From positions 1-58,224 of the forward strand of contig JBCLLN010000005.1 in the NCBI GenBank assembly GCA_039738635.1: 58,224 bases of DNA, written 5' to 3'. The DNA is from Candidatus Saccharimonadia bacterium. GTDB lineage: Bacteria; Patescibacteriota; Saccharimonadia; CAILAD01; BJGX01. The notes under the pieces are model-generated. The model made no database searches, was not told where the DNA came from, and worked only from the letters and a program-made list of their open reading frames with translations. Position numbers and translations under genes: made by a program. Each line of letters starts with the position of its first letter. Within the stretch, counting starts at the first letter, position 1. Shown here piece after piece: positions 1 through 4,797 of the stretch.

Positions 1-366
1 GGAGATGACATTACTTCATTGCAAAACTTTGTCCAGTCATCACTGACGGCATACACAATGTACTTTAATAAAAAGTACAAAAGGGTAGGTCCATTATTCC
101 AAGGTGTGTTTAAAGCCTCAAAAATATCAAGCGACGCATATTTAATCCATATCAGCAGGTATATTCATCTTAATCCCAGACGGTATAAGGCATATTACTA
201 TTCAAGCTTGCAATATTATGTATCAAAAGAATCGCCAGCTTGGCTAAAGCCTCAAAAGATAATATCATTGTTTACATCTCCCAAAGAATACATGAAGTTT
301 ATTGAAAAGTATGACGATACGACAATAACTCATGACGACTTCGAACCAGAACTTGCGAACAAATAA
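1..366 (+). CDS. Y1 tyrosine transposase (IS200/RAYT-like), copy A, 5' end cut by window edge
   Basis: nt 1-366 align gap-free with 1925-2290 (offset 1924). The translated tail differs from copy B at 3 residues, with the same TAA stop. Confidence 0.8.
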   Translation, partial: GDDITSLQNFVQSSLTAYTMYFNKKYKRVGPLFQGVFKASKISSDAYLIHISRYIHLNPRRYKAYYYSSLQYYVSKESPAWLKPQKIISLFTSPKEYMKFIEKYDDTTITHDDFEPELANK

Positions 367-492: not shown

Positions 493-520
493 TTGACATT
501 TTATGTAATTGTAGTATAAT
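493..520 (+). promoter_or_regulatory. near-consensus sigma70-type promoter at the low-GC/high-GC junction
   Basis: TTGACA (493-498), 16-nt spacer, TATAAT (515-520), about 70 nt upstream of the 592 ATG. Confidence 0.55.
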
Positions 521-591
521 TACACGGTTATCACCAGATACCCCGTTTGCGCGACGGACTCGCGTTGCACCCTACATAAGGAGACCACCCG

Positions 592-1464
592 ATGAAACGG
601 CTTGTTAGCCTGATCATGGTGCTTGGCCTCGCGGTCGGCATCGTTCTTGTCACCAACATCAAGAAGGTTGAAGCGTGGATGACCTCGGCTATGGCCGATG
701 TCCGCTGCGCGGACAACCAAGTTCAGCTGTTCGGAACGTTTCTCAATGATGAGCCGGCAGTCCCAGCTGGTGCGATCAATGTCACGATTCGTGACACCGT
801 TACCGGCAATGCCGTCCAACTGACGGTCGCCGGCCAGACAACATCACCGTGGCAGATCAACACTGGTTTGCTAACCACAGCCGGGTCGGAAGTTACAGTC
901 GAGCAGCATTGGGCTGACGGAAGAGAGGATATCCATTCTTTCACCGTTCCCTACGGCGCGCTCGATTGCACTCCACCACCGCCCAAGCCGATGGGTGCAA
1001 CCAGTGCTACCCAGCGTTGCGACGCAACCACCGGCACCTACATCGGGGATGTGACACTCGAGAACCCCGGCGAGATGGACTTCACCGTCCAGTCATCGTC
1101 GGATTTCCCGAGCACAACTCCCTGGTTGGCACGATCAGGCACGGCCGAGCGCAAGAGCTTCGTCATCCCAGGCAATGTGTCACGGTCGAGCTACCAGCTC
1201 GTTGGTGTCACACCTGAGGGCGAAACGATCATATTGCGAGGGGACATTACTCCAGTTATGAACGGCGAATGCTTGTTCGTACCTGGCGAAGGTCTTCCTC
1301 CTGCCAACCCGATCAGCACACCACCTTCGGCACCTCCGGAGCTGGCGTACACCGGGTCAACGTCGGCACTGCTGGCCATGCTGGGCACCCTTGCCCTTCT
1401 GGTCGGTGGTATCTGCATTTGCAAGACGCGTCAGCGTCTCACGGAATCTACGCTCTTGAACTAG
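592..1464 (+). CDS. secreted cell-wall-anchored surface protein with LAxTG-type sorting signal (high-GC, foreign)
   Basis: aaggag RBS 8 nt upstream; N-terminal hydrophobic signal-like segment; C-terminal LAYTG + hydrophobic stretch + KTRQR. Line 1021-1080 counts 63% G+C. Confidence 0.75.
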   Translation: MKRLVSLIMVLGLAVGIVLVTNIKKVEAWMTSAMADVRCADNQVQLFGTFLNDEPAVPAGAINVTIRDTVTGNAVQLTVAGQTTSPWQINTGLLTTAGSEVTVEQHWADGREDIHSFTVPYGALDCTPPPPKPMGATSATQRCDATTGTYIGDVTLENPGEMDFTVQSSSDFPSTTPWLARSGTAERKSFVIPGNVSRSSYQLVGVTPEGETIILRGDITPVMNGECLFVPGEGLPPANPISTPPSAPPELAYTGSTSALLAMLGTLALLVGGICICKTRQRLTESTLLN

Positions 1465-1472
1465 GGTCCACA

Positions 1473-1522
1473 CCGCGGTTTTGGGAGGGGAGCTTTACAG
1501 CTCCCCTCCGCCGCGGTTTTTT
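1473..1522 (+). terminator. GC-rich nested hairpin plus T6, intrinsic terminator of the LAxTG gene
   Basis: ccgcgg..ggaggggagc tttac agctcccctcc..ccgcgg followed by tttttt. Confidence 0.75.
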
Positions 1523-1609
1523 AATTGCCTTAATTATCTACTAGTAATTTAAGCTCCTAATAATCCTAATATCCTAATAAGTCCTATTAAGTAAGTATTC
1601 TTAATAAGT

Positions 1610-2356
1610 TCTTAATAAGGTCTCACCTTTACACCTGTAATATCGTGTCATCTGTAGTACACTAACAGTATGCCTGCTAGAAACACAGTTAAACACTATT
1701 CTTCCAATGCTTATTATCATATATATAATCGGGGTGTTGCAAAGCAATCAATCTTCCTTGACTCAGAGGACAAGAAGTACTTTCTGAAAATAGTAGCTCG
1801 TCATCTTGATCCGTCGAACACAGACCAACGCTATGATGGGGTAGTCTATAAAAAATACAATGCCAGTCTCGAGCTACTCAGCTACTGCCTAATGGGTAAT
1901 CACTTTCATATGCTGTTTTACATGGGAGATGACATTACTTCATTGCAAAACTTTGTCCAGTCATCACTGACGGCATACACAATGTACTTTAATAAAAAGT
2001 ACAAAAGGGTAGGTCCATTATTCCAAGGTGTGTTTAAAGCCTCAAAAATATCAAGCGACGCATATTTAATCCATATCAGCAGGTATATTCATCTTAATCC
2101 CAGACGGTATAAGGCATATTACTATTCAAGCTTGCAATATTATGTATCAAAAGAATCGCCAGCTTGGCTAAAGCCTCAAAAGATAATATCATTGTTTACA
2201 TCTCCCAAAGAATACATGAAGTTTATTGAAGAGTATGACGATACGACAATAACTCAAGACGACTTCGAACAAGAACTTGCGAACAAATAACATCTCATAT
2301 GACACGAATCATCAGATGTAAAGGTGAGACCTTATATAAAGGTGAGACCTTATATA
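1610..2356 (+). mobile_element. complete Y1-transposase element (copy B) bounded by REP-like inverted repeats
   Basis: Imperfect ~40-nt inverted repeats at 1610-1651 and 2296-2338. The right-end 18-mer aaggtgagaccttatata is tandemly duplicated (2321-2356). Confidence 0.7.
1670..2290 (+). CDS. Y1 tyrosine transposase, IS200/REP-associated (RAYT)-like
   Basis: 206 aa with YHIYNRG and CLMGNHFHMLF (HUH-type) motifs and a C-terminal YSS..Y region typical of the Y1_Tnp family. Confidence 0.8.
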   Translation: MPARNTVKHYSSNAYYHIYNRGVAKQSIFLDSEDKKYFLKIVARHLDPSNTDQRYDGVVYKKYNASLELLSYCLMGNHFHMLFYMGDDITSLQNFVQSSLTAYTMYFNKKYKRVGPLFQGVFKASKISSDAYLIHISRYIHLNPRRYKAYYYSSLQYYVSKESPAWLKPQKIISLFTSPKEYMKFIEEYDDTTITQDDFEQELANK

Positions 2357-2505: not shown

Positions 2506-2580
2506 TGGCTGGGACGGAAGGGGTCGAACCTTCGATCTCCTGCTCCAGAGGCAGGCGCCTTACCACTTGGCTACGTCCCA
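2506..2580 (-). tRNA. tRNA-Gln(CUG)
   Basis: Hand-folded cloverleaf: acceptor tgggacg/cgtccca, anticodon loop cuCUGga, T-arm gaagg ttcgacc ccttc, encoded CCA. Confidence 0.85.
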
Positions 2581-4722: not shown

Positions 4723-4797
4723 AACCAGAACTTGCGAACAGATAACATTTCATATGACACGAATCATCAGATGTAAAGGTGAGACCTTATATTCCTT
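4723..4797 (+). mobile_element. solo right-end remnant of the Y1-transposase element
   Basis: Matches the last ~24 nt of the transposase CDS plus the REP-like end (compare 343-415 and 2267-2338). No ORF is attached. Confidence 0.8.

Follow-up and report, generated by a model that had tools for sequence, protein, structure and literature searches.

The stretch of DNA considered here, referred to below as the window, is the whole of contig C5 (58,224 nt) from a Candidatus Saccharimonadia assembly of 771.5 kb in 33 contigs with a guanine plus cytosine (GC) content of 42.6%. Our subject is a single gene near its left end, 592-1464(+), which fills a sharply bounded GC-rich island and encodes a putative cell-wall-anchored surface protein of 290 amino acids (aa). 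A preliminary description, made from the sequence alone, had presented the island as a sortase-anchored protein acquired from an actinobacterial host, expressed from a low-GC promoter lying outside the junction and closed by an actinobacterial-style terminator. The GC island is real, and all the elements listed in that description are present. The single gene it had seen in the island corresponds to one intact open reading frame (ORF), and its jump from ~42% to ~63% GC over ~535-1530 is roughly right: in 200-nt windows the GC fraction is 0.34-0.36 over 1-500, 0.52-0.62 over 501-1500, and 0.34 over 1501-1700, with the island extending over ~535-1525, at 0.55-0.62, between flanks of 34-36% GC. 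From left to right, the unit consists of:

493-520 (+), sigma-70-type promoter TTGACA-16-TATAAT in AT-rich DNA, 12/12 consensus matches, conserved with four homologous loci
527-591 (+), conserved 5' leader with a 6-bp hairpin, a GCACC box and a Shine-Dalgarno sequence; the rise in GC starts here
592-1464 (+), surface-protein gene, 290 aa, stop codon included, GC 58%, GC at third codon positions (GC3) 0.65
592-675 (+), signal peptide (aa 1-28), predicted cleavage VEA/W; A28 and W29 are invariant in the closest homologues
685-954 (+), immunoglobulin (Ig)-like β-sandwich domain 1 (aa 32-121), predicted local distance difference test score (pLDDT) 90-97, flanked by C39/C126
997-1263 (+), Ig-like β-sandwich domain 2 (aa 136-224), pLDDT 92-96, flanked by the invariant C143/C227
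1264-1341 (+), Pro-rich stalk (aa 225-250), pLDDT 46-54 for residues 231-260
1342-1437 (+), cell-wall sorting signal: LAYTG (1342-1356), a 22-residue hydrophobic segment (1357-1422) and KTRQR (1423-1437)
1472-1523 (+), intrinsic terminator, a 19-pair GC-rich hairpin (1472-1517) followed by a T-run

The protein begins with MKR, a 17-residue hydrophobic helix (residues 2-23 in the structural model, at low pLDDT) and VEA/W, and ends with LAYTG, the hydrophobic segment STSALLAMLGTLALLVGGICIC and KTRQR, so that both the signal-like N-terminus and the C-terminal sorting signal noticed earlier are present. Residues L251, T254, and G255 of the sorting signal are invariant among the closest homologues. 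The AlphaFold2 model, computed from an 11-row alignment with a mean pLDDT of 82.7 and values above 90 in both domains, consists of two β-sandwiches, a disordered stalk and a C-terminal helix. Domain 1, in which C39 is nearly invariant and C126 invariant, is the part common to most of the 44 relatives described below. Neither domain matches a family in Pfam (searched with all family members), in NCBIfam or among PDB sequences (searched with a profile), and Foldseek against the PDB returned only generic tandem Ig-like modules with TM-scores of at most 0.30, belonging to adhesins, pilus chaperones, transglutaminase C-terminal domains, and antibodies. The architecture resembles that of the LPXTG/LAXTG sortase-anchored proteins (MSCRAMM-like adhesins; TIGR01167 / PF00746), with a signal peptide, tandem Ig-like sandwiches, a Pro-rich stalk, a pentapeptide followed by a hydrophobic segment and a basic tail, and a sortase in the genome. 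It departs from them in that its domains match no catalogued family and are each bracketed by a cysteine pair, in that it occurs in an ultra-small epibiont, and in that the GC content of the gene is far above that of the genome, as in most relatives.

The GC content of the gene (58.1%, or 0.581) divides into 0.577/0.512/0.653 at codon positions 1/2/3, compared with genome means of 0.507/0.380/0.410 over 440 ORFs of at least 200 aa. Its GC3 ranks third among these ORFs (z = 3.75), and at 0.653 against 0.41±0.065 genome-wide the gene is foreign-looking, with a composition unlike that of the recipient genome. A mere effect of amino-acid composition is ruled out by this value: because GC3 is high, the anomaly lies largely at silent sites and is no by-product of amino-acid content. 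The genome contains ~20 further stretches above 55% GC, mostly repeat proteins, and GC-richness is therefore not unique to this gene. Two genes have an even higher GC3, namely G000 C10:3428-4723(+) with 0.75 and C9:27632-28240(-) with 0.665, the latter coding for a product with a signal peptide. Neither of them uses the leader frame described next, which was looked for in the small GC-rich genes on C9, C10, C2, C16, and C30 of this genome and is not used there.

The signals surrounding the coding sequence recur with homologous genes elsewhere. The -35 and -10 boxes, the block after the -10 box (TTACACGGTTAT in three of the five loci), the leader and the Shine-Dalgarno sequence (AAGGAG at 578-583 in the window) are common to the window and to the loci L010, L011, L013, and G034, with a mean column identity of 69% over the promoter and leader of these five. 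The leader motif they share is CGCGA-CGGAC/CGGTT-TCGCG followed by G(C/T)ACC; in the window, the stem is formed by 549-554 and 560-565 around the loop CGGAC. The terminator, which has a folding energy of -37.7 kcal/mol (z -5.98 vs shuffles), is common to the window and L011 in the form CACACC(C)GCGG...GGAGGGGAGC...GCTCCCCTCC...CCGCGGTTTTTT, and for L010 and L013, whose ends are partial, the available sequence agrees with it. Compared with L010, the window shows 71% identity over the 104-nt non-coding frame, 55% in the coding DNA, and 29% in the protein. Because the rise in GC begins past the -10 box, within the leader, the island coincides with the transcribed unit, and the AT-rich promoter belongs to the same inherited cassette. 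The low-GC promoter proposed earlier thus stands as TTGACA-16-TATAAT but not as resident DNA outside the junction, being conserved with the gene elsewhere. The GC-rich terminator hairpin was likewise correctly recognized, and its sequence, kept in L011 and, as far as present, in L010 and L013, makes it part of the gene's cassette.

The leader hairpin is probably real, judging from the pattern of substitutions in aligned leaders. On the five loci, 93% of the cells are paired, with three compensatory pairs, and 29-56 of 500 shuffles equal the observed values; folding of single leader sequences gives z-scores near 0. On 12 model-aligned sequences, 95% of the cells are paired, all six pairs are compensatory (6/6), and none of 500 shuffles reaches the covariation score, and it is only from this alignment, whose fitting to a covariance model itself favors such an outcome, that the support for the hairpin comes. 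The leader matches no Rfam family. Its role as a stem stabilizing the 5' end of the mRNA, or as a protein-binding site, is a guess in either case. The covariance model of promoter and leader gave a solid 42-bit match in G038, a genome of the same order, and weaker matches upstream of other small genes. At the G038 match (L114 1501-2141; G038:C14), the hairpin is exact (CGCGACGGTCTCGCG), the start context CACCCGATG is the same as in the window, and the leader precedes an unrelated GC-rich gene of 177 aa without a signal peptide and with its own hairpin terminator at the end. This gene has 53-60% GC, compared with 39-48% in its flanks.

Relatives of the protein are few and distant. Two protein libraries, together built from about 15 billion proteins, were searched: among 5.8 billion clusters at 90% identity, searched through a word index, the query alone was matched, and a full HMMER pass over 1.84 billion representatives yielded 44 proteins with E ≤ 1e-3, where the best match other than the query itself is 32% identical. 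A search of genome contigs with the family alignment found no related loci. The relatives carry a signal peptide ending in A-x-A/W, one or two β-rich cysteine-bearing domains, a Thr/Pro-rich linker and, in most cases, a sorting signal; many of these signals are LPxTG, others LAYTG, LACTG, LARTG, or LALTG. An 11-member profile detected the family in 4 of the 60 genomes searched from the window's order and in 9 of 401 from its class. The supposition that the genome is that of a Saccharibacteria-type epibiont holds, with UvrA from the window finding its best matches (68-78% identity) in metagenome-assembled genomes (MAGs) labelled Candidatus Saccharibacteria and with a genome size (0.77 Mb) and GC content in keeping with this.

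Of the 14 relatives for which DNA was examined, about a dozen lie, like the gene in the window, in a GC-rich island within lower-GC, mostly Saccharibacteria-like DNA:

L010 (P0002), gene GC 62%, flanks 42%, GC3 0.70
L011 (P0003), gene GC 62-68%, flanks 40-53%, beside thrS
L013 (P0005), gene GC 58-68%, flanks 36%
G045 (same order), gene GC 64-71%, flanks about 50%, beside galU
G034 (same order), gene GC about 63%, flanks about 44%, beside thrS and a tRNA
G363 (complete 1.01-Mb genome), gene GC 59-65%, flanks 40-52%
L103 (P0009), gene GC 58-63%, flanks 44-51%, GC3 0.73, followed by a sortase-like gene
L104 (P0012), gene GC 57-60%, flanks about 50%, on a 120-kb contig with ribosomal genes
L105 (P0015), gene GC 65-67%, flanks 41-53%, beside galU
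G147 and G270, GC-rich islands

The locus in G059 is patchy in GC, and that in G158 is on a small contig that is GC-rich throughout. Synteny is found between L011 and G034, both adjacent to thrS, and between G045 and L105, both adjacent to galU. A thrS-adjacent position was ruled out for the window genome, where thrS is on C13 without the cassette. In G045:C9 (L003 2350-2955), a second GC-rich ORF (60-64%) stands upstream of the family gene in divergent orientation and makes a two-gene island.

This recurrence bears on the possibility of an assembly or binning artefact, in which a foreign high-GC fragment has been joined near the end of a Saccharibacteria contig. The contig does open within a repeated transposase gene, and no more than 535 nt separate its start from the island. 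We nevertheless regard such an artefact as very improbable: the two junctions coincide exactly with the promoter and the terminator, and the left flank matches an element deeper in this contig at 99-100% identity. What speaks most strongly against a chimeric join is that independent assemblies, among them a complete single-contig genome and a contig of 384 kb, show the same succession of low-GC promoter, GC-rich gene and terminator.

A recent direct transfer from an actinobacterial host (Actinomyces, Schaalia, or similar) to its epibiont, behind a resident promoter, is the origin that had been proposed at first. It draws on GC and GC3 far above the genome values, the LAxTG motif, a patchy distribution among relatives with absence from the same-genus genome G001, and one family member in actinomycete-like DNA, and to this extent the proposal is partly supported. 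The close donor that it calls for did not appear, with no homologue above 32% identity in the libraries and, among 401 sampled Actinomycetes genomes, in each of which only five candidates were scored, no domain-level match (0/401) and one 26-bit match to the sorting-signal segment alone. The promoter, leader and terminator accompany the gene in other Saccharibacteria-type assemblies, whereas this frame was not found at the actinomycete-like locus (P0004, L012). The GC3 of 0.65 is below that of the relatives in L010 and L103, and the sortase of the genome, described below, is class F-like and of native composition. Together with the synteny among relatives, this makes a recent transfer from the host improbable. 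Best matches within candidate phyla radiation (CPR) genomes had been named in the preliminary description as the outcome that would tell against it, and what was obtained comes close, the relatives being GC-rich islands in mostly Saccharibacteria-like low-GC DNA.

In our view the gene is rather probably part of a cassette that resides in the Saccharibacteria lineage and stays GC-rich persistently, and is no recent import from the host. The family is sparse, very fast-diverging and uncatalogued, and has its home mainly in Saccharibacteria, as far as the data reach; most of its members are 10-25 GC points above their own genome, and a subset carries the promoter-leader-terminator frame. What lasting process would keep these genes GC-rich is a matter for speculation, with recombination-linked GC-biased conversion and repeated exchange among Saccharibacteria as candidates.

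Several observations weigh against this reading. GC-richness is not obligatory in the family, since one member, in G249, has ordinary GC. The relative P0004 (L012), with a LARTG signal, lies in uniformly 64-76% GC DNA alongside P450 and EryCIII-type glycosyltransferase genes, and is the sole relative among the loci examined in such actinomycete-like DNA; with this member, an old actinobacterial origin of the whole family is possible. The family gene was not found in G001, and its arrival in the lineage could therefore be fairly recent, though from another Saccharibacterium. The tree of 12 two-domain members is a star whose deep branches are not resolved and which gives no direction of transfer. 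The anchor model PF00746, a short model centered on LPxTG, has no match to the protein at E ≤ 0.01 and matched 1 of 11 family members. The narrow scoring of the Actinomycetes sample and a class label that rests on one MAG title belong to the same side of the balance.

A rival reading is an ancient import, in which the family would have come from high-GC Gram-positives once or a few times, gained its promoter and leader, and spread vertically and between Saccharibacteria while its composition was kept by selection or biased conversion. Sortase anchoring and LAxTG are common in Actinobacteria; the actinomycete-like member with its LARTG signal and the GC-richness shared by deeply diverged copies also fit. 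The family is, however, rarer in the sampled Actinomycetes than in Saccharibacteria, and with a star tree lacking direction the actinomycete copy is equally explicable as an export. An ancient import differs from the lineage-resident cassette solely in the origin of the family, and we regard it as rather unlikely.

The sortase of the genome is informative in the same respect. LAxTG had been linked to the class E sortases of Actinobacteria. Examples of that system are SrtE1/SrtE2 of Streptomyces coelicolor and SrtF of Corynebacterium, and the protein does share with it the use of LAxTG in place of LPxTG. One sortase was found in the genome, at C21:2-736(-), with 82 bits for PF04203 (cut-off 26.6), the catalytic motif LVTC and a GC content of 42.7%. 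It scores best on the class F model NF033748 (109 bits, below the cut-off of 166) and reaches only 42.9 bits on the class E model NF033747 (cut-off 160), which is at odds with the class E link, and both LAxTG and LPxTG occur within this protein family in Saccharibacteria. It is the only sortase in an assembly that is 82% complete, from which a second could be missing. The protein is a credible sortase substrate. A six-frame scan gave only two canonical sorting signals in the genome, LAYTG of this gene and LAATG on C4, and same-family relatives carry LPQTG or LPATG on other surface proteins. Because LAxTG also occurs in the genome's only other sorting signal and in other Saccharibacteria relatives, it is no mark of actinobacterial origin; from the motifs, it looks like the one served by the organism's own sortase. 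The LAATG signal makes up nearly all of a 62-aa mini-ORF (MGYTTAGSSAVMVGGAGGTLAATGGLSFFWLV...ARRRNHH; G000 C4:3130-3315(-)) directly after a family-2 glycosyltransferase-like gene. In L103, a GC-rich sortase-like gene (1344-2042, 56% GC, GC3 0.64; PF04203 25 bits, just below the cut-off) follows the family gene, which suggests that some cassettes bring their own sortase.

From these features, a course of events can be proposed. The consensus promoter and the leader would drive transcription and the strong intrinsic terminator would end the transcript; the product would be exported by the Sec pathway with cleavage of the signal peptide, and its two Ig-like domains, each bracketed by a conserved cysteine pair, would fold with disulfide stabilization. 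The class F-like sortase would then cleave between T and G of LAYTG and attach the protein covalently to peptidoglycan, with the two domains displayed on a short stalk. Wall anchoring by the genome's single sortase is most likely the fate of the protein. The architecture and the very fast divergence suggest that it might contact or bind host cells, phage or other partners, which is speculative.

Saccharibacteria live attached to Actinobacteria, and to our knowledge the molecules mediating this contact are largely unknown; a good candidate for such a role in contact or recognition is a wall-anchored, fast-diversifying and strongly promoted protein. When a Saccharibacteria genome contains a sharp GC island with "actinobacterial" codons, this is, by itself, no evidence of recent transfer from host to epibiont. 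If real, the lasting GC-richness would offer a test, set by nature, of how bacteria maintain their local base composition, and the leader hairpin, conserved as it is, would represent a new regulatory element. More tentatively, Saccharibacteria may keep single-gene "expression cassettes", each with a promoter, a leader hairpin (CGCGA/UCGCG with the loop CGGAC or CGGUU, and a GCACC box), and a terminator, whose cargo changes fast, has long been GC-rich and is often sortase-anchored. Their GC could be held by GC-biased gene conversion at hot spots of exchange or, alternatively, be selected, with the product or the mRNA needing likeness to that of the actinobacterial host. This idea, if true, would mean that an epibiont's base composition and antigens evolve in a way not described before; full-text literature searches for GC-rich sortase-substrate cassettes in Saccharibacteria brought up no description of them.

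Two direct copies of a Y1-transposase element enclose the cassette, near a tRNA-Gln gene:

1-366 (+), Y1 (IS200-like / RAYT-like) transposase gene, copy A, 3' part, cut by the contig start
372-411 (+), 40-nt terminal inverted repeat, right end of copy A, identical at 2296-2335 and 4751-4790 and 83% complementary to 1615-1654
1615-2335 (+), complete Y1-transposase element, copy B, with inverted repeats at 1615-1654 and 2296-2335 and the gene at 1670-2290
2506-2580 (-), tRNA-Gln (CTG), marking the variable site

Positions 1-300 are 100% identical to 1925-2224, and positions 1-413 are 99% identical to the full copy. Transposase genes on both sides and an adjacent tRNA would also suit a recent transfer from the host. 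The same site in G001, whose flanking DNA is 80-92% identical to that of the window, has no transposase and carries a different GC-rich gene (L111 2343-3116, G001:C5) of 257 aa and 57-61% GC, which lacks a signal peptide and matches nothing in Pfam; after it come trmD, a KH-domain gene, rpsP, and smc. Because G001 carries a different GC-rich gene there, the tRNA-Gln site appears to be a variable spot that takes GC-rich cargo, to which the cassette may perhaps have been relocated by the two Y1-transposase copies. Both trmD and the 257-aa gene are absent from the window assembly. Beside the G001 site, murI seems partly missing, query positions 498-891 being unmatched in G001.

The arrangement is reminiscent of replacement-type loci beside tRNA genes (flexible islands, polymorphic surface-antigen loci), with differing GC-rich genes at one tRNA-Gln site in two species of one genus and a coding sequence that diverges fast between conserved flanks. 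Unlike such loci, it consists of one gene equipped with a promoter, leader and terminator of its own, has no integrase, and is bracketed by Y1 transposases (IS200/RAYT-like). The transposase of copy B scores 29.1 bits on the Pfam model Y1_Tnp (PF01797; cut-off 23) and 35.8 bits on NF047646, the model of REP-associated tyrosine transposases (RAYTs), below the cut-off of 80. The Y1_Tnp domain, in which the HxH motif reads HFH, the element length of ~720 bp, the flanking inverted repeats and the short gene-less derivatives elsewhere in the genome are shared with RAYT and IS200/IS605 elements. The score below the NCBIfam cut-off and the presence of several full or partial gene copies, not one, are unlike RAYTs, and two direct copies bracketing a cargo gene are unusual for RAYT/IS200/IS605 elements. 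The element has been active in this genome in the past. Remnants or internally deleted, miniature inverted-repeat transposable element (MITE)-like derivatives with the 40-nt repeats lie at 4723-4797 of the window, G000 C11:5942-6372, and C8:2932-3128. Repeated CCTAATAA / TCTTAATAAG motifs occur in the AT-rich spacer (1523-1614) that separates the terminator from the end of the transposon.

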